Source of the DNA: an uncultured Verrucomicrobiae bacterium
Lineage (GTDB): Bacteria; Verrucomicrobiota; Verrucomicrobiia; Chthoniobacterales; UBA10450
Direction: 5' to 3'
DNA length: 64,000 nt
Assembly: GCA_963824205.1 (NCBI GenBank)
Contig: CAWGOG010000004.1
Coordinates: 149,934-213,933 of the forward strand
The notes under the pieces are model-generated. The model made no database searches. It was given only the letters and a program-made list of their open reading frames with translations, and was not told the DNA's origin. The translations under genes were made by a program, and so were the position numbers. This document shows, one piece after another, positions 2,174 to 60,409 of the stretch (positions are counted from its first letter, which is position 1; each line of letters begins with the position of its first letter).

Positions 2174-4107
2174 GCGGAGACCGCCCCTTTTTCGCCGAAT
2201 TGAAGCGGCGAAACGTTTACAAGGTTGCGGTCGCGTACGGTGTCGTCGCCTGGCTCGTAGTCCAGGTTGCCACCCAGGTCTTCCCCTTCCTCGAGATTCC
2301 AAACTGGGCCGTTCGCCTTGTCATCGCACTGGTCGTGATCGGGTTTCCGATTGCGCTTGTGATCGCATGGGCCTTCGAAACCACACCGGAAGGACTCAAA
2401 CGAACCGAGACAGCCGACGCCATGCCGGCGACCGCCCGCCGCCAGAAGAAAACCTGGATCTACGTCGTCGTCATCGGCGGTGCAATCTCCGTCGCGCTTT
2501 TCTTCGCCGGCAGGTACACCGCATCTACCGCAGGCAACCAAACATCTCAAAACCCTAACGAGCCAACCACCAAGTCCATCGCGGTGCTGCCTTTTGTGAA
2601 CATGAGCGCGGACAAGGAAAACGAATTCTTCGCCGATGGGCTTTCCGAGGAAATTCTGAATTCGCTCGCCCGGATCGATGGGATGCGAGTGGTCGGCCGC
2701 ACTTCGTCGTTTCAGTTCAAGGGCAAGGCCGAGGATCTCCGCGCCATCGGCCAAAAACTGGGCGTCGCCAATGTGCTCGAAGGCAGCGTACGGCGTGAAG
2801 GCCAACGGGCCCGGATCACGGCGCAGCTCGTCCGTACATCCGATGGCATCCACTTATGGTCACAGACTTACGATCGCACGCTGACGGATACGCTGGCGGT
2901 GCAACTGGATATCGCCGAGCAGGTCGCCGGCGTGCTCAACGTAGTGCTGGACGACAAACAGCGGGACGCGATGCGTGCCGCCGGGGTAAAAAATGTCGAT
3001 GCCTTCATCGCCTATGAAAAAGGATTGAAGCTTTATGCCGATGCGCACAATCCGGCCAAAAGCCACAACGTCATCGATGGTCTGCGGGCCGCGAACAAAG
3101 AGTTCGATAGCGCCATTGCGCTGGACCCGGGGTTTTCCCAGGCTTATTTCGCCGCCGCGGATCTGTACGATCACATTATCCTGGCAGACGACCGGCCGGA
3201 CTCGGAACGTCGCGACGCCCAACAGCAGGTTTTGCATTACCTCGAGCTCTCGGCCGCTAATAGTCACGATGAACAGCAACGCCTCCTGACTCTGGCTGAC
3301 CGACAGTTGGTGGAAGACGACTGGCATGGCCTGCCGGCCCGGATCGACACCGCCTTGCGTGCGCCGGGATGCAGCGCACCAGACTGGTTACCGGTCTTTG
3401 CATGTATCTTTGGTTATGGCGATCTGATCGAAGATCTCGGAGCGCGTGTCAGCGTTTGTGATCCTCTCAATGCGGTCAATTTCAATACTCGCATTCGCGC
3501 TGCCTTGGCCGCGGGGAAACCGGAGCGGGCGCTCGCTATTCTGACGGCGGCCGAGAAGGCGAATAGCGGCACGCCGCCACATAGCGCTTATCGCGTTCAG
3601 GCCTTTCTCATGGCCGGACATGTGGACGAAGCCAGAACCGAATTGTCCAAGTTGGAGCCCACCGGCGAAAACTACTATCGGGCTCGACTCATGTTTGGCC
3701 TGGCGACAGGCGAGAGTGCCGCCAGCATCCATGCGGCCTTGCAAAGCGTCGATCGGAGCAAGTCCGTCTACAAAGTGTGGAAGATGAACGACATGATCGA
3801 GGCCGCGCTCATGGGCGATCGCGTAACCGCGAATCGCCTGGCCGGAGAAATCGACAAGCAACCTGGCGGCGGCCTGATCCTGGCGGTGATCGCTGCTGAC
3901 AGCTTGTGCGGCGCGCCCTTCGATCTTGAGGCGACACCTTATTTCAAGGCCAGGCTCGCCCAATCGGGTTTGCCCTGGCCGCCGATGCGGGCCCTCAAGC
4001 TTCCACCGCGCACCGCGGCATCCAATCCACTGCGCGGCGATCCACGCTTCGAAGCGCTGGCCGAGAAGATTATTCCGGCAGCAGAATTTCCCGCGCCTGC
4101 CAAATGA
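2170..4107 (+). CDS. TolB-N-like domain / TPR repeat membrane protein (3-TM anchor head), intact paralog
   Basis: The 645-aa ORF has the N-terminus MSGDRPFFAELKRRNVYKVAVAYGVVAWLVVQ and 3 predicted TM helices. It carries the TolB-like motif KSIAVLPFVNMSADKENEFFADG...VVGRTSS...LEGSVRR and a C-terminal helical/TPR-like region ending DPRFEAL. Its ATG overlaps the upstream stop as ATGA. Confidence 0.85.
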   Translation: MSGDRPFFAELKRRNVYKVAVAYGVVAWLVVQVATQVFPFLEIPNWAVRLVIALVVIGFPIALVIAWAFETTPEGLKRTETADAMPATARRQKKTWIYVVVIGGAISVALFFAGRYTASTAGNQTSQNPNEPTTKSIAVLPFVNMSADKENEFFADGLSEEILNSLARIDGMRVVGRTSSFQFKGKAEDLRAIGQKLGVANVLEGSVRREGQRARITAQLVRTSDGIHLWSQTYDRTLTDTLAVQLDIAEQVAGVLNVVLDDKQRDAMRAAGVKNVDAFIAYEKGLKLYADAHNPAKSHNVIDGLRAANKEFDSAIALDPGFSQAYFAAADLYDHIILADDRPDSERRDAQQQVLHYLELSAANSHDEQQRLLTLADRQLVEDDWHGLPARIDTALRAPGCSAPDWLPVFACIFGYGDLIEDLGARVSVCDPLNAVNFNTRIRAALAAGKPERALAILTAAEKANSGTPPHSAYRVQAFLMAGHVDEARTELSKLEPTGENYYRARLMFGLATGESAASIHAALQSVDRSKSVYKVWKMNDMIEAALMGDRVTANRLAGEIDKQPGGGLILAVIAADSLCGAPFDLEATPYFKARLAQSGLPWPPMRALKLPPRTAASNPLRGDPRFEALAEKIIPAAEFPAPAK

Positions 4108-5904
4108 AGAGCGATAACTTCTTCGCCGAGCTGAAGCGGCGCAATGTTTACAAGGTCGCGGTCGCCTACGCAGTCGTTGGCTGGCTGGTTGTCCAGGTGA
4201 GTTCGACGGTCCTGCCAACTTTTCATGCACCCGAGTGGGTCGTGCAGACGCTGGTGGTGATCGTTGCGATCGGGTTTCCCGTCGCCCTCGTCATCGCGTG
4301 GGCTTTTGAAGCGACGCCAGAAGGAATCAAGCGAACCGAGGTGGCAGACGCCATGCCGGAAACGGCACGATCAAAGAAGCACGCCTGGATTTATGTGGTG
4401 CTCATTGGCGCTGTTATTTCGGCGGCCGTCTTCTTTGCGGCCCGTGGCGGCAAACGAATGTCTTCGTCGGAAACAGTATCCGGCGGCGAACCGGCAGTGT
4501 CCCTGCCGGCGAAGTCGATCGCGGTATTGCCGCTTGATAATCTGAGCGAGGACAAGGCGAACGCCTATTTCGCAGAAGGTGTGCAGGACGAAATTCTCAC
4601 GCGTCTGGCCAAGGTGGCCGACCTGAAAGTCATCTCGCGCACATCGACGCAGCGATTCAAAAGCACGCCGACAGATTTGCGTGAGATCGCGAAGCAGCTT
4701 GGGGTCATGAACATTCTCGAAGGCAGCGTACAGAAGGCAAACGACCAGGTGCGGGTCAATGTTCAATTGATCAACGCCACTACCGATGCGCATCTCTGGG
4801 CGGAGATTTACGATCGCAAGCTGACGCGATATCTTCGCGGTCGAGAGCGACATCGCGAAAACTATCGCCGATACCTTACAGGCGAAACTGACCGGTTCAG
4901 AAAAGCAAATGATGGCCACGGCTCCGACTAACGACACGACGGCCTACGAGCTTTATCACAAAGGCAGATCGCTATGGGGAAAGCGGACGGGCGACAATAT
5001 TCCGAAAGCAATCGAATTCTACCAGCAGGCGATTTCGCACGATCCGAATTACGCGCTGGCTTACGCCGGTCTTTCGAGCGCATATATTCTGTCCCCCTTT
5101 TACGCTAACGCGAACCGGCTCGAGATGTCTGCGAAAGCGAAAGAGGCGGCCCTCAAAGCTCTCCAACTCGATCCAAATTTGGCCGAAGCGCACGCGGCAC
5201 TTGGAAAAGTGCTCTTCTTTGGCGAAATCGATCTGGCCGGAGCCGCGCGCGAATACAAGCGCGCGATCGAGCTCAAGCCGAACGACGCAGACGCCCACCA
5301 TTGGTTCAGTAACGACATTCTGGCGGCGCTGGGACGATTCGACGAGGCCATCGCCGAGGGCAGGCGCTCGGTTGAATTAGATCCGTTGTCGGTAGTCATA
5401 AACGCGGACCTGGGCGAGACGTTCTACTACGCCAAGCGCTACGACGAGTCAGTTACGCAATTGCGAAAGACGCTCGAGATCGATCCAACATCTTTCTACA
5501 CGCACTACAATCTCGGCATTGCTCTTCAGGCGAAGGGCGACCTGCCTGGTGCAATTGCCGAATACGAGAAAGCTAAGGAATTAGGCGATAACACGACTGT
5601 GTCGACGTTTTACGCCGCGGCCAAAGCGCAGGCTGGTGACAAGGAGGCCGGGCGGCGGATGTTGAGCGAGCTCGACAAAATAAGTCAGCAACGCGAGGTG
5701 GTTGGCTACTTGCGCGCTCTACTCTATCTCAGCTTGAACAATAAAGATGAAGCTCTGCGCTGGCTCGAACAGGGCATCAAGGAACGCGACGGCTCAAACA
5801 TCTGCTGGATCAATGTTGATCCCCTCCTCGCTTCGCTACACGGCGACCCGCGCTTCGAGACCCTTGTCCAAAAAGTGATCGCGCCAAAAACGGAAACGAA
5901 GTGA
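4104..5904 (+). pseudogene. TolB-N-like/TPR membrane protein paralog with a single +1 frameshift near 4824-4830 (possible sequencing error)
   Basis: ORF 4104-4931 has the MKSDNFFAELKRRNVYKVAVAY head, 3 TM helices and KSIAVLPLDNLSEDKANAYFAEGVQDEILTRLAKVADLKVISRTS. It continues in frame +1 as ORF 4909-5904, which holds TPR repeats and ends DPRFETL. Across the junction, the alternative frame reads DIFAVESDIAKTIADTLQAKLTGSEKQ, matching the other paralogs. A 1-nt insertion therefore explains the frameshift. Confidence 0.6.
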
Positions 5905-7751
5905 ACCCCGGCAATTTCTTTGCCGAGCTCAAACGGCGAAATGTTTACAAGGTCGCGGCCGCGTATCTGGTGGTCTCTTGGCTCCTGATCCAGGCGGCTT
6001 CGATTCTTTTTCCCACGTTCGATGCCCCCGCATCAGCGATGAAGATTCTGGTGGTCATCCTTGCAATCGGCTTTCCCATCGCGCTTGCCTTCTCCTGGGC
6101 CTTCGAGATCACCCCCGAAGGACTCAAGCTCGAATCGGACATCGATCCCAAGCAATCGATTGCGCAGCACACCGGAAAGAAGATTATTGGCCTAACGATC
6201 ACGCTGGCGGTCATCGCAGCTGGGCTCTTCGCCTACCGACTATTGCGGCCCCGTGACGCGGCTGTAGGGGAAGCTGTTAGCTTCCCGCCTAAACAAGATG
6301 GGAAGCTAACAGCTTCCCCTACAAACCGAGGTCTCGCGGGAGCTGCATCCTCCATCCCCGAAAAAAGCATCGCCGTTCTTCCGTTCGATAATCTCAGTCG
6401 CGACCCTGATAACGCCTATTTCAGCGAAGGCATTCAGGACGAAATTCTGACGCGACTGGCCAAGGTGACGGATCTCAAGGTGATCTCACGCACCTCGACT
6501 CAACGCTTCAAAAGCACCCCTAACGATCTTCCTCAGATTGCCCAGCAACTCGGCGTGGCCAACATTCTCGAAGGCAGCGTGCAGAAGGCGGGCGATCAAG
6601 TGCGCGTCAATGTTCAGCTGATTAAGGCAGCCACCGATGCGCATCTTTGGGCGGATACCTACGATCGGAAGCTGACCGACATTTTTGCAGTCGAAAGTGA
6701 AATTGCGCGGACCGTCGCAGAGACGCTCCAGGCCAAGCTTACCGGAGCGGCGCCGCAGGTATTGTCGTCGAAGCCGACGGAAAATCCGGAAGCACACGAG
6801 CTTTACCTCAAAGGGCGCCATTTCTGGAACCGCCGCAACGAGGCCGACATCAAGAAGGCTTTGCAATACTTCCAGGAAGCGGTGGCGAAAGATCCCTCGT
6901 ACGCCCTCGCCGTTGTTGGAGTGGCTGACTCTTATGCCATCCTGCCAAGCTACAGCAACGATCCGCCCAAGCCAGAGGTGGAACGGGCTTTGGCTGCAGC
7001 ACACAAGGCCATAGAGCTCGACGATTCACTGGCCGAGGCGCACACCGCTCTGGCGAACGCTCTCGGGGCCGACTTTCAGTTCGCGGCTTCGGAGGCCGAA
7101 TTCAAACGCGCCTTCGCCTTGAATCCTAACTACGCCTCGGCCCACCAGTGGTATGGCGAATGCCTTCAGTCGTTAGGTCGCTTCGATGAAGCTATCGCGG
7201 AGCTCCGCCACGCCCACGACCTCGATCCCCTTTCGATGATCATCAATGTCGTGCTCGCAGGCACGTATTACTCCGCGGGCCGGATGGACGAAGCCACTCA
7301 ACAACTCGCGCGCGCGATTGAGCTCGACCCGACCTTCACGGTCAATTATTGGTTGCGCGGCCAAATCGACGAAAGCCGCGGACAATTTGGCGAAGCTATT
7401 GCCGACTACAAGAAAGCCGCGATTTCTACTTCCCCTGAAGTAACCCAGGCACTGATTGCCTGCGCTTATGCCCGTTCAGGCGAGACCGCCAAAGCGCAAG
7501 AGATTTTGAAATGGTTGACTGCACGATCGCAGCAAACCTTTCTTCCCAGTTACTATATCGCCGAGGTTCACGCAATGCTCGGGAACAAGGACGAAGCCAT
7601 TCGCCTCCTCGAAAAAGCTTACGAAGAACGAAGCATCCCCGTGGGCGGCGCGGGCATTGGCGGCCCGATCACCGATCCTCGCTTCGATTCTCTTCGCGGC
7701 GACCCACGTTTCCAGAAACTGATTGCGAAATTTTCCGGCGAGGCAAAGTGA
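5901..7751 (+). CDS. TolB-N-like domain / TPR repeat membrane protein (3-TM anchor head), intact paralog; GTG start
   Basis: The 616-aa ORF has the head MNPGNFFAELKRRNVYKVAAAY and the motif KSIAVLPFDNLSRDPDNAYFSEGIQDEILTRLAKVTDLKVISRTS. TPR repeats follow, and the C-terminus ends DPRFQKLIAKF. Its GTG start overlaps the upstream stop as GTGA. The linker carries an in-frame REP-like palindrome pair at 6264-6324. Confidence 0.85.
   Translation: MNPGNFFAELKRRNVYKVAAAYLVVSWLLIQAASILFPTFDAPASAMKILVVILAIGFPIALAFSWAFEITPEGLKLESDIDPKQSIAQHTGKKIIGLTITLAVIAAGLFAYRLLRPRDAAVGEAVSFPPKQDGKLTASPTNRGLAGAASSIPEKSIAVLPFDNLSRDPDNAYFSEGIQDEILTRLAKVTDLKVISRTSTQRFKSTPNDLPQIAQQLGVANILEGSVQKAGDQVRVNVQLIKAATDAHLWADTYDRKLTDIFAVESEIARTVAETLQAKLTGAAPQVLSSKPTENPEAHELYLKGRHFWNRRNEADIKKALQYFQEAVAKDPSYALAVVGVADSYAILPSYSNDPPKPEVERALAAAHKAIELDDSLAEAHTALANALGADFQFAASEAEFKRAFALNPNYASAHQWYGECLQSLGRFDEAIAELRHAHDLDPLSMIINVVLAGTYYSAGRMDEATQQLARAIELDPTFTVNYWLRGQIDESRGQFGEAIADYKKAAISTSPEVTQALIACAYARSGETAKAQEILKWLTARSQQTFLPSYYIAEVHAMLGNKDEAIRLLEKAYEERSIPVGGAGIGGPITDPRFDSLRGDPRFQKLIAKFSGEAK
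6264..6324. repeat. Inverted pair of REP-like hairpin elements (tgtaggggaagctgttagcttccc / gggaagctaacagcttcccctaca) inside a coding sequence
   Basis: The two copies form a perfect 61-bp palindrome around a 13-nt spacer. Each copy is itself an 8-bp stem hairpin (GGGAAGCT-NNN-AGCTTCCC). The same core recurs at 56319-56368 and 56845-56870. Confidence 0.55.
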
Positions 7752-54652: not shown

Positions 54653-56226
<1,574 letters not shown>

Positions 56227-56318
56227 TTCATTGCCCTTCTCGAGCTTCGGCTCGGCAAGAGGCGGTTGAATAGGTCGACGGCTAAGTCCGATCTTTTCAG
56301 ATGCTCACCAAGTTCCTC

Positions 56319-56368
56319 GTAGGGGAAGTAGTTAGTTAGTTGGAAGACAAGCAGAGCGCTTCCCCTAC
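56319..56368. repeat. REP-like hairpin (gtaggggaag - 30 nt loop - cttcccctac) in the 16S 3' trailer
   Basis: A 10-bp perfect inverted repeat shares the GTAGGGGAAG core with the elements at 6264-6324 and 56845-56870. Confidence 0.5.
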
Positions 56369-56490
56369 CAGGACAAGGGCATTTGGGATGATCGGATATG
56401 CCGTGAAGACTTTGGAATCGAAAGAAACCAGAGCTCAAGGAAAACGACGTGGTAACGCACAATTCAGTCTTTGCTGCAAACATCGATAAA

Positions 56491-56522: not shown

Positions 56523-56844
56523 TGTACCGCAATCCCTAGGAAAGCCGGAACGAAGGAAAAGAGGCCGGGATCATTTCAATTAGGAAGCCAGGACTCCAGG
56601 AGTTGGATCAATTAGGAACCCAGGAAAGCAGGAAATTCTGAAAAGGCTTTAACCTCGGACTCCCTGAATCGCAGATTGCAATTACGAAAACCGGAACTCA
56701 GAAAAGGGCAAGACTACGCGGGATTCTTTCTGGAAGTAACGTCTCGGTGCGGTGATCACGCCACGCCTGCATCACATATTCCGCATGCTGCAGCGAGCAG
56801 GACTGCACTGTAGGGAAGGCGTTGCCTTCCGTTATTTATTAGGC

Positions 56845-56870
56845 GGGAAGCTATCAGCTTCCCCTACAAA
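56845..56870. repeat. REP-like hairpin element gggaagctatcagcttcccctacaaa overlapping the stop codon of the minus-strand gene 56864-57842
   Basis: An 8-bp stem (GGGAAGCT / AGCTTCCC) flanks a 3-nt loop and carries a CCTACAAA tail. The element differs from the 6300-6324 copy only in its loop. Confidence 0.5.
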
Positions 56871-57842
56871 ACGCCGGCAGGATGCCGGTCGAAGCGAGCA
56901 GAATGCTCGCGCTCTCCAAGCTCTCCGCTTTCCGCTTTTACTTCTTTCCTTTCTTGAGCTCCGCCAACGCATCTTTCGCTTCCTGGGCGTTCTCGCCCTT
57001 GGGGATCCACTTTGACGGCTTCCTCGTAATATTTTTTAGAGGCGGCATCGTCGCCCAGATCGCTTGAGACCCGGCCGAGATTGATCAGCACAAGCGCATC
57101 TTTTGGATCGGCCTTGTGCGCTTTCTCCAGCCATTCCTTCGTCTTTTCGTTGTCGCCTTCCACGGAATAATACAAGGCGACATCGTTCAAGGCGTAGGGA
57201 TGATTCGGATATTGCTCGGCCGCGAACTGCGCCATTTTCAGGAAACGCTTGTCGTCATCTTCGTCCTCTTTCTTCTCATAATAAATGGCGTAGCCGTGCA
57301 GCTTTTCCGGGATGAACTTATCCGGCGGATCTGAGAATCTTGTTCCCCATCCAAAGCAAATTCGCCGGATGCGCCTTGGCGTAGGCCACCATCTTTTGAA
57401 GAACGGGAAATTGGGCATCGAAATTCCCGCTCTCCTGATAAATGAAGGCGAGCCCGCACCAGATATCGAGGCGATCGGAGAATTTCCTGGTCGCTTCCTC
57501 GAGCAGATCGGCGGCGCGTTTGGCGTTCTCAGGATCGAGCGGAAATGAAACACTCCCCTCCTCTCCGGTGTCCTTTTTCTTAAGCGGAATATCGCCCGCT
57601 TCCGGTTTCTTTTTGGAAATGTTGAGCTGGCGCTTGTTGAAATAGTAATTCGCGCTCACCACCCACGCCTCGGGATCGTCCGATTTTTTCGCGCGCCATT
57701 CGGTGAGCAAGGCTTCAAGCTCGGCATCGCCGGCTTTTTTGTCGCGTAAGCTCTGGTATTTAGCGGCGTAATTTTCGTCGGCGCGCAGGATCGGCGCGAC
57801 AGCGAGGAAAAGGATCAGGATTGAACGGATGGTAGCGCTCAT
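56864..57842 (-). CDS. Secreted TPR-like/helical repeat protein, apparent frameshift near 57340
   Basis: ORF 57318-57842 has a signal peptide (MSATIRSILILFLAVAPILRA). ORF 56864-57553 in another frame carries helical repeat content (YAIYYEKKEDEDDDKRFLKMAQFAAEQYPNHPYALNDVALYYSVEGDNEKTKEWLEKAHKADPKDALVLINLG). The two join at ...LLWMGNKI / SDPPDKF... Confidence 0.45.
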
Positions 57843-60336: not shown

Positions 60337-60409
60337 GGGGGCATAGCTCAGTTGGTAGAGCGCCAGCTTTGCAAGCTGGATGTCAGGGGTTCGAATCCCC
60401 TTGCCTCCA
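60337..60409 (+). tRNA. tRNA-Ala (anticodon TGC), no encoded CCA
   Basis: GGGGGCATAGCTCAGTTGGTAGAGCGCCAGCTTTGCAAGCTGGATGTCAGGGGTTCGAATCCCCTTGCCTCCA folds as a cloverleaf. The G3:U70 wobble pair is the tRNA-Ala identity element. The anticodon loop is CTTTGCAAG. Confidence 0.9.

Follow-up and report, generated by a model that had tools for sequence, protein, structure and literature searches.

Rickettsia palindromic elements (RPE), associated with the work of Ogata et al. in 2000, are reportedly inserted in frame in protein genes. As in the case considered here, they are mobile palindromes which survive in open reading frames (ORFs), keep the frame and add a peptide at permissive sites. They differ in that RPE-1 is longer, while RPE-4 and RPE-6, equated with CGTC-type REPs in PMC3733652, are tagged by CGTC instead of GTAG, and in that their lineage is unrelated. 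According to the same article, no dedicated transposase is known for RPE.

The REPINs of Pseudomonas and Enterobacteria consist, like the element in question, of two inverted REPs and a spacer which together form a long hairpin, and their doublets are likewise conserved beyond expectation (Bertels and Rainey, 2011, PMC3116915; PMC3479197). Furthermore, the GTAG head, the CT dinucleotide and a RAYT gene flanked by REPs are shared with REPIN-RAYT systems (PMC3116915; PMC3479197); the RAYT here occupies a conserved position in four related contigs. E. coli TnpA-REP cleaves at CT, with the A and G of the GTAG acting as guides (Messing et al., 2012, PMC3479197). In contrast to the REPINs of Pseudomonas and Enterobacteria, which are described as extragenic (PMC3116915; PMC3479197), the one in the window (the whole 64-kb stretch of DNA that was analysed) is predicted to be translated. 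Here, GTAG also takes part in the outer stem of the doublet, a single palindrome and not a doublet is the commonest form among the fetched loci, and the host belongs to a different phylum.

Intragenic dimers of GTAG REPs which encode 20–30 aa were reported in 2013 and are most abundant in the verrucomicrobium Opitutus terrae (Di Nocera, De Gregorio and Rocco, 2013, BMC Genomics 14:522, PMC3733652). The article describes a minority of GTAG REP units as lying wholly inside ORFs, more than half of these being dimers or groups encoding 20–30 aa; it proposes a placement of intragenic REPs in flexible linkers and names DnaE/DnaE2 and other replication and repair genes among their hosts. The O. terrae REPs resemble those described here in their GTAG head and short hairpin, in their tail-to-tail and head-to-head dimers and in their REP-flanked RAYT genes (“REPtrons”), whereas the stem and the encoded peptides differ (VGPALAAG and similar in O. 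terrae, VGEAVSFP and GKLTASPT here), as does the host order (Opitutales for O. terrae, Chthoniobacterales here). An in-frame arrangement of this kind is already known from a related bacterium, and the window copy is a further case. An intragenic copy whose nucleotides are conserved across lineages is seen here and is not reported in the accessible part of PMC3733652.

The element and its host gene

The element lies in a gene for a 616-aa protein. The features of the locus, together with a second copy of the element, are located in the window as follows:

5901 to 7751, plus strand: host gene of 616 aa (ORF translation), member of a tandem paralogue array
6262 to 6263, plus strand: CT dinucleotide immediately 5' of the GTAG head, read from the sequence
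6263 to 6286: left arm, TGTAGGGGAAGCTGTTAGCTTCCC (repeat finder)
6264 to 6286, plus strand: left REP unit of 23 nt, GTAG head at 6264–6267 and hairpin GGGAAGCT-GTT-AGCTTCCC at 6268–6286
6287 to 6299, no strand assigned: spacer of 13 nt, GCCTAAACAAGAT, between the REP tails, loop of the long REPIN hairpin
6300 to 6323: right arm, GGGAAGCTAACAGCTTCCCCTACA (repeat finder)
6300 to 6322, minus strand: right REP unit, inverted, minus-strand reading GTAGGGGAAGCTGTTAGCTTCCC, head at 6319–6322
56809 to 56868, no strand assigned: second, diverged REPIN, TGTAGGGAAGGCGTTGCCTTCC, 14-nt spacer, GGGAAGCTATCAGCTTCCCCTACA

The 61-nt element at 6263–6323 is a REPIN, made up of inverted GTAG-tagged REPs which are arranged tail-to-tail around a short spacer. 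Its arms, each 24 nt long and separated by 13 nt, are 100% complementary, in agreement with the earlier note, which had placed two inverted hairpin copies at 6264–6324; the “perfect 61-bp palindrome” described there holds for 48 of the 61 nt, the spacer being non-palindromic. Each arm contains its own hairpin (GGGAAGCT-nnn-AGCTTCCC) with an 8-bp stem and a 3-nt loop, and the 23-nt unit lies within the 20–40 nt of the short hairpin-forming palindromes that define REPs. GTAG is found at the 5' foot, and the CT in front of the left head is a candidate cleavage dinucleotide on the model of E. coli TnpA-REP. The right arm is lengthened by base 6323, and the minus-strand dinucleotide at the right end is TT rather than CT because position 6324 is an A.

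An RNA segment of 100 nt folds at -67.2 kcal/mol (z = -9.5); the 61-nt element by itself reaches -49 kcal/mol when folded as RNA and -29 kcal/mol as DNA, and its minimum-energy fold is the long hairpin of inverted REPs with a spacer. The arm motif occurs three times in the window as opposed to 0.00 expected occurrences. A palindrome arisen by chance or an assembly chimera, the latter having been raised in the earlier note, can be dismissed with near certainty: none of 100 shuffles contains any match, the fold has the z-score given above, the same element occupies the same site in independent assemblies from several metagenomes (L120, L125 and L126/L127), and the family has well over a hundred other members.

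The host protein comprises three N-terminal hydrophobic segments (about aa 17–40, 42–71 and 92–115), a variable linker with the REPIN, a conserved “TolB-like” block and TPR repeats, and an identical 616-aa protein is on record as P0001. Position 6264 is the first base of a codon; the REPIN encodes residues 122–141 (VGEAVSFPPKQDGKLTASPT) just after the third hydrophobic segment and before the conserved block IPEKSIAVLPF. Both the in-frame insertion inside the gene and its location in the variable linker between TM3 and the TolB-like domain had been proposed from the outset, as had a linker some 20 aa longer than that of the siblings; all three are borne out, the homologues being mostly about 595 aa long. 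Only one of the three frames on each strand of the element is free of stops, and it is this frame which the host gene uses. As 61 nt is not divisible by three, further indels must have come with or after the insertion.

Other classes of element were considered and rejected. A MITE derived from a DDE insertion sequence is excluded by the flanks GACGCGGC and AACCGAGG, which share no direct repeat and hence no target-site duplication; around the longer family forms listed, target-site duplications are likewise absent, the flanks showing just a palindromic CT/AG extension. The head GTAG, as opposed to CGTC, sets the element apart from CGTC-type REPs and Rickettsia palindromic elements as defined in PMC3733652. 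An intrinsic terminator was rejected, with no terminator-like site on the plus strand in a 1-kb scan; the sole terminator-like site of the element is weak and lies on the minus strand (2 sites found in the 1-kb scan, 1.1 expected), and a search for promoters and terminators gave nothing above chance on the coding strand. Rfam contains no match at gathering thresholds, and in E-value mode it returned only long-hairpin look-alikes, namely eukaryotic miRNA precursors at 18.5–42 bits (thresholds 63–95). Such sub-threshold matches are expected of any long hairpin, and a known RNA family was therefore rejected.

The REP family and its transposase

The REP family to which the element belongs populates verrucomicrobial genomes of the order Chthoniobacterales (Udaeobacter, Chthoniobacter). 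The window itself holds two REPIN copies, the second of which (56809–56868) is situated downstream of a TPR gene on the minus strand, past its 3' end, and has a left hairpin whose pairing is preserved through compensatory changes. A genome scan revealed at least 119 stretches with the family, nearly all from Verrucomicrobiota/Chthoniobacterales (Udaeobacter and Chthoniobacter MAGs), and these include 35 palindromes of 27 nt which stand alone and 39 longer forms, for the most part doublets of 47–100 nt. The commonest form among the fetched loci is a single 27–29-nt palindrome with a head on each side. CT|GTAG is found at 121 of 158 family ends. In 32 partner arms, which were picked solely by their GTAGGG head, 95.7% of the cells are paired (36–57% in slid controls), 34 cells are double changes, and changes occur on both sides in 5 of 8 pairs; none of 500 shuffles scores as high. 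The REP/BIME-like assignment made in the earlier note is supported by the second window copy, these at least 119 stretches, the CT|GTAG head, the covarying hairpin and the cognate RAYT described below. The absence of further copies, which the note had named as its refutation, is contradicted by the first two of these.

About 139 elements in 843 kb are dispersed mainly over extragenic sites: 53 lie in intergenic regions (12 expected), while ORF interiors contain 41 as opposed to 106 expected, a count which is an upper bound because the gene calls include spurious Arg-rich ORFs. These location statistics use greedy longest-ORF gene calls, a procedure which missed the window gene because of a longer overlapping ORF. 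Intragenic copies verified with Pfam amount to 7 elements in 6 other genes, in addition to the window gene. They are read in frame in FtsK (motor domain), DnaE (PHP domain), an E2 acyltransferase (linkers), a GT2-CBM48 protein, an ABC transporter and ThiC. The description of an in-frame insertion as rare has to be tempered by these further cases in the clade and by the GTAG dimers published in PMC3733652.

A single RAYT gene (HUH/Y1 transposase, IS200/IS605 superfamily) is located between the proteasomal ATPase and Pup-ligase genes of related genomes. Its 162-aa product in L033 passes the cut-offs of two profiles, reaching 85.9 bits against 80 for REP_Tyr_transpos (NCBIfam NF047646) and 29.7 against 23 for Y1_Tnp (Pfam); it exhibits the HUH (PDHAH) and tyrosine (YVQDNP) motifs, and has TnpA-REP (4er8) as its closest solved structure. 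REP flanks and the conserved position are found in L033, L069, L128 and L130, and REP flanks are listed for L129 as well; the lineage accordingly holds a cognate HUH/Y gene flanked by the same REPs. Relatives of the protein number 532 at E <= 1e-10, some of them called RayT by their sources, and two RAYT matches occur in the at least 119 fetched stretches. A search of the 64-kb window with an E. coli RAYT and the L033 protein as probes found no RAYT. The REPs which flank the L130 RAYT equal the window arms exactly, so that the window element looks like a “REPtron” minus the transposase.

We consider it probable that the element is a REPIN of a Chthoniobacterales family spread by RAYT, which was inserted in the linker, is now read through in frame and is tolerated there as a passenger. 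Judging from the biochemistry of E. coli TnpA-REP, the RAYT would bind the hairpin and GTAG on single-stranded DNA, cleave at CT and transfer strands, whereby doublets would be copied. One copy would have entered the DNA for an unconstrained juxtamembrane linker, where it could have survived because the sole stop-free frame was used and the net length change preserved the frame. The REPIN would then be read through as 20 additional linker residues.

Conservation at orthologous sites

The same REPIN with the same spacer is present in four homologous genes, where it shows 0–3 differences per 61 nt while the aligned flanks differ by 14–31% (binomial P between 7e-7 and 6e-3). Neither the right arm nor the spacer varies across the four genes, the right arm being without synonymous change, and the few changes are confined to the left arm (V>V, E>A, V>A). 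The orientation is the same throughout, and the junctions are alike (left GGCTGTAG or ACTGTAG/ACTGTGG, right CTACAA).

A master REPIN inserted several times, independently and recently, into a hot-spot target, as opposed to one ancient insertion, would account for near-identity beside diverged flanks, and IS200/IS605-type enzymes are generally known to be capable of target specificity (PMC3479197). Such a series of events is nevertheless very improbable, given that spacer, orientation and junctions are alike in all four genes. Furthermore, no other doublet among the at least 119 stretches listed has the spacer GCCTAAACAAGAT, and a metagenome scan for it found matches in this gene alone.

Exaptation of the 20-residue segment, conserved since the peptide matters to the protein, would fit its in-frame retention across four lineages and its location at a domain boundary. 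It is very improbable, more so even than a master REPIN, as synonymous differences are lacking wherever the peptide stays the same and such differences as do occur change amino acids. The linkers of close orthologues are unrelated and differ in length. In addition, the same peptide frames recur in unrelated proteins because these share the same DNA. Protein-level conservation of the inserted peptide was rejected on the substitution pattern.

Three close orthologues are without the element, and presence/absence variation is seen in the host gene and in both E2 linkers. The orthologues offer no clean empty site: an unrelated stretch of 46–52 nt replaces 72 nt, so that the boundaries and mechanism of the insertion are not readable from them. 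These REPIN-free linkers were rejected as decayed REPs, their local alignment scores being matched by 115 to 910 of 2000 shuffles. In neighbour-joining trees, REPIN-bearing and REPIN-free alleles are interleaved, and the most distant homologue, L127, carries the REPIN. A recombination breakpoint at the REPIN, an idea which goes back to the recombination site suggested in the earlier note, was rejected as well; L120 is a mosaic, but its identity to the window declines gradually from about 6650 onward and not at the element, and L127 shows no resolvable switch of nearest relative.

Alternatively, selection may have kept the hairpin for a nucleic-acid job at the locus, with the 20 residues as a by-product. 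Candidates are an mRNA structure which controls how fast the transcript is translated or how stable it is between the membrane and periplasmic modules, or a DNA site recognised by RAYT or some other protein. The low divergence relative to the flanks argues for such a role, as do the invariant right arm and spacer and the V>V, E>A and V>A changes, which run opposite to protein-level constraint. As the spacer is found only in the host gene, templating from other copies cannot account for its constancy, and the interleaved alleles together with carriage by L127 point to long retention of the REPIN. We regard this explanation as unlikely, because at other orthologous REP sites, mostly intergenic, the arms are about 91–100% conserved beside flanks at 71–79%, which makes better-than-flank conservation a property of the family and not of the host gene. 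Moreover, the three close orthologues manage without the element, and REP doublets in the linkers of the E2 gene decay, come and go.

At the protein level, the REPIN is thus most likely a tolerated passenger, and its high nucleotide conservation appears to match the general conservation of REP arms in the family. The invariant locus-specific spacer and the lack of synonymous change in the right arm exceed what a pure “neutral passenger” predicts. It is a tentative suggestion, and one with rather low odds, that intragenic REPINs of Chthoniobacterales are in dual use, combining linker coding with purifying selection on the hairpin at the nucleotide level; the hairpin could in that case have a role in RAYT recognition, mRNA structure or DNA metabolism.

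Intragenic REPINs in the Chthoniobacterales

Members of the Chthoniobacterales/Udaeobacter group rank among the commonest bacteria in soil, and nearly all knowledge of them comes from metagenomes. REPIN-RAYT systems are here extended to this group, whose REP family is repeatedly found in frame within housekeeping genes. For annotation, 20-aa inserts of the type “VGEAVSFP...GKLTASPT” are repeat-derived and represent neither domain features nor assembly errors. Furthermore, orthologous intragenic REPINs constitute a natural experiment in which the coding flanks serve as an internal clock for nucleotide-level constraint.

An inverted pair of REP hairpins read in frame

The element consists of two arms, located with a repeat finder and separated by a 13-nt spacer, GCCTAAACAAGAT:

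6263–6286: left arm, 24 nt, TGTAGGGGAAGCTGTTAGCTTCCC
6300–6323: right arm, 24 nt, GGGAAGCTAACAGCTTCCCCTACA

The arms are 100% complementary to each other, and each forms its own hairpin with an 8-bp stem and a 3-nt loop, which makes the element two small hairpins in inverted orientation. The earlier note had described a "perfect 61-bp palindrome," which is slightly too loose, since 48 of the 61 nt are palindromic and the spacer is not. The window contains three instances of the arm motif, whereas 100 shuffles gave none. A 100-nt RNA segment has a folding energy of −67.2 kcal/mol (z = −9.5), and the minimum-energy fold of the 61 nt alone is a single long hairpin (−49 kcal/mol as RNA, −29 as DNA), as compared with −26 (RNA) and −16 (DNA) for two separate REP hairpins. 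Tested as a MITE, a terminator and a member of an Rfam family, the element was assigned to none of these.

The host ORF (5901–7751, plus strand, 616 aa) contains the element with nucleotide 6264 at the first codon position, so that it encodes residues 122–141, VGEAVSFPPKQDGKLTASPT. Three hydrophobic segments (about aa 17–40, 42–71, and 92–115) precede these residues, and the conserved block IPEKSIAVLPF follows them. Most listed homologues measure ~595 aa and are roughly 20 residues shorter at this linker. Only one of the three frames per strand of the element is free of stops, and this is the frame read by the host gene.

Overlapping GTGA stop/start signals at 5901–5904 and 7748–7751 link the tandem TolB-like/TPR paralogues, an arrangement suggestive of a translationally coupled operon. 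The paralogue immediately upstream (4104–5904) is present as two overlapping ORFs (4104–4931 and 4909–5904) which together amount to one family-length protein and thus indicate a frameshift: the gene is a pseudogene or the sequence contains an error. Related contigs carry the same arrays, together with members containing a guanylate-cyclase domain.

The REP family and its transposase

The window holds one further copy of the whole doublet:

56809–56868: second REPIN, extragenic, diverged

Its left hairpin now reads GGAAGGC-GTT-GCCTTCC, with pairing retained. When one genome from each species was scanned with GGGAAGCNNNNNGCTTCCCCTACA, at least 119 stretches matched; together with the second copy, they bear out the suggestion of a REP family extending beyond the window. 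Among the matches listed (119 stretches), about 113 are, judged by record title, from Verrucomicrobiota, mostly MAGs of Chthoniobacterales, Candidatus Udaeobacter, Chthoniobacter, and "Spartobacteria." In the 843 kb of listed stretches ~139 elements were counted, most commonly as a single palindrome of 27–29 nt, (T)GTAGGGGAAGC-N5-GCTTCCCCTAC(A), while most of the 39 longer forms (47–100 nt) are doublets with the architecture of the window copy. The hairpins within one doublet are often unlike (GGGAAGC versus GGGACGC, GGGAGGC, or GCGAAGC), with pairing kept in each. Pairing holds in 95.7% of cells across 32 partner arms selected solely by their GTAGGG head, and changes on both sides affect five of eight stem pairs (34 cells). 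None of 500 shuffles reached the observed value on four of five measures, one did so for the number of pairs with double changes, and slid controls showed only 36–57% pairing. The dinucleotide CT directly precedes GTAG at 121 of 158 family ends.

A tblastn match revealed a REP-associated tyrosine transposase (RAYT) in one of the fetched contigs, and RAYT genes occupy the same position, between proteasomal AAA ATPase and Pup-ligase genes, in four:

L033, 5196–5681, minus strand: RAYT ORF, 162 aa
L069, 1271–1754: RAYT gene with a frameshift and the HUH motif lost (reads DLFH)
L128, 4001–4492: RAYT gene
L130, 4001–4453: RAYT gene

This shared position in four Chthoniobacterales contigs suggests a single, vertically inherited copy. 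The L033 protein scores 85.9 bits against NCBIfam NF047646, "REP-associated tyrosine transposase" (cut-off 80), and 29.7 bits against Pfam Y1_Tnp (cut-off 23), contains HUH (PDHAH) and tyrosine (YVQDNP) motifs, and has E. coli TnpA-REP (4er8) as its closest solved relative. Its 532 relatives at E ≤ 1e-10 are named RayT by some sources. Inverted REPs with their heads outward lie on both sides of the gene in L033, L128, L129, and L130. Those of L130, CTGTAGGGGAAGCTGTTAGCTTCCC and GGGAAGCTAACAGCTTCCCCTACAG, are identical to the window's two arms, and the window element therefore resembles a REPtron minus its transposase; no RAYT was found within the 64-kb window. Anatomy, family, covariation, and a RAYT bracketed by identical REPs in related genomes uphold the reading as a REP-like inverted pair. 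The original observation is confirmed, and its interpretation, apart from the word "perfect" and the suggested functions, is supported.

E. coli TnpA-REP requires the hairpin together with all four bases of GTAG, and cuts single-stranded DNA at CT (PMC3479197), while the REPIN concept treats the doublet as the replicative unit (PMC3116915). By analogy, the Chthoniobacterales RAYT would copy REP doublets. Judging from the sequence, one copy most likely ended up in linker-coding DNA and survived because both frame and reading remained intact where the protein is little constrained; its translation would yield a 20-residue linker extension. The hairpin might in addition influence translation or the fate of the mRNA.

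Surroundings of the second REPIN

The second REPIN lies beside an apparently broken gene:

56864–57842, minus strand: TPR gene, ORFs 57318–57842 and 56864–57553

The TAG stop of ORF 56864–57553 comes from the GTAG head of the REPIN, and an alternative frame (...AELKKGKK*) ending near 56941 may represent the true C-terminus. A complete bacterial 16S rRNA gene is located at 54653–56216; an Rfam search matched no 23S rRNA anywhere in the window, which extends ~8 kb past the 16S gene downstream, and this rRNA gene appears to be unlinked. The sole other Rfam match in the window is a tRNA (60337–60409). About 100 nt past the 16S end, a hairpin at 56314–56373 with 15-nt arms, TCCTCGTAGGGGAAG and CTTCCCCTACCAGGA, has ends resembling REP heads and an unrelated 30-nt interior; decay of a REP doublet, or chance, could account for it. 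Purine-rich direct repeats, each roughly 26 nt long (TCAATTAGGAAGCCAGGA...), occupy 56535–56707 in the non-coding DNA that separates the second REPIN from the 16S gene.

Intragenic copies, their conservation and age

By a crude longest-ORF procedure, the family is depleted in ORF interiors (41 elements versus 106 expected) and enriched between ORFs (53 versus 12) and at ORF ends (29 versus 8). In-frame copies in other genes were confirmed by Pfam domains at both sides:

L045: FtsK, within the motor domain
L094: DnaE, within the PHP domain
L047 (4364–5608), with L065 (2271–3545) and L056 (5021–6352): E2 acyltransferase, doublets in one or both inter-domain linkers (both in L047)
L113: GT2-CBM48 protein
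L082: ABC transporter, between membrane and ATPase domains
L081: ThiC

These copies are read in frames as in the window copy and share the peptide words VGEA.SFP, GK.TASPT, and ..SFPY. The E2-linker doublets are present or absent depending on the genome, with visible decay.

Three close orthologues of the host protein (P0002, P0003, and P0005; 83–87% identity) are without the element and carry an unrelated 46–52-nt stretch, with no significant similarity to the element, in place of the window's 72 nt; there is thus neither a clean empty site nor a target duplication. Three other homologous genes bear it at the same site and with the same spacer:

L120 (P0010): 61/61 identical
L125 (P0121): 59/61
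L126/L127: 58/61

Their aligned flanks are 14–31% different (binomial P between 6e-3 and 7e-7). Differences among bearers are confined to the left arm (A>G in the head, a single A>C in the stem, and T>C changes in the loop), with residue effects V>V, E>A, and V>A, while neither the right arm nor the spacer varies, with zero synonymous changes; the constraint is therefore read as acting on the nucleic acid and not on the peptide. Outside the host gene, the spacer was found neither in the metagenome scan nor in other doublets of the listed stretches. At other orthologous REP sites among the fetched loci, flanks are 71–79% and arms about 91–100% identical, and spacers vary. Conservation of the arms is thus common to the whole family, which does not account for the constancy of this spacer. 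The near-invariance of this copy, spacer included, leaves some chance, though a low one, of selection on the hairpin itself at this locus. Neighbor-joining trees interleave bearers and non-bearers, and L127, the most distant homologue, is a bearer; the element is therefore old, and the REPIN-free alleles are probably secondary. The L120 homologue P0010 (5001–6866) is a mosaic relative to 5901–7751, with ~80–90% identity over the first 750 nt and 45–70% in the TPR part, suggesting module exchange among paralogues.

The classical analogue of in-frame palindromic repeats is the RPEs of Rickettsia, which differ from the present element in bearing a CGTC tag or in being longer. GTAG-tagged REP families, with dimers in both tail-to-tail and head-to-head arrangement, and REPtrons already appear in Di Nocera et al. 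(2013; PMC3733652). There, intragenic REPs peak in number in the verrucomicrobium Opitutus terrae, and more than half of the intragenic units are dimers or groups coding for 20–30 aa; a flexible-linker location is suggested, and many hosts are replication or repair genes. The phenomenon is identical, whereas the peptides differ (e.g., VGPALAAG in O. terrae), which marks the window element as another family in another order. The sole feature beyond the published accounts compared here is an intragenic REPIN that is near-invariant, its private spacer included, at up to ~30% flank divergence.
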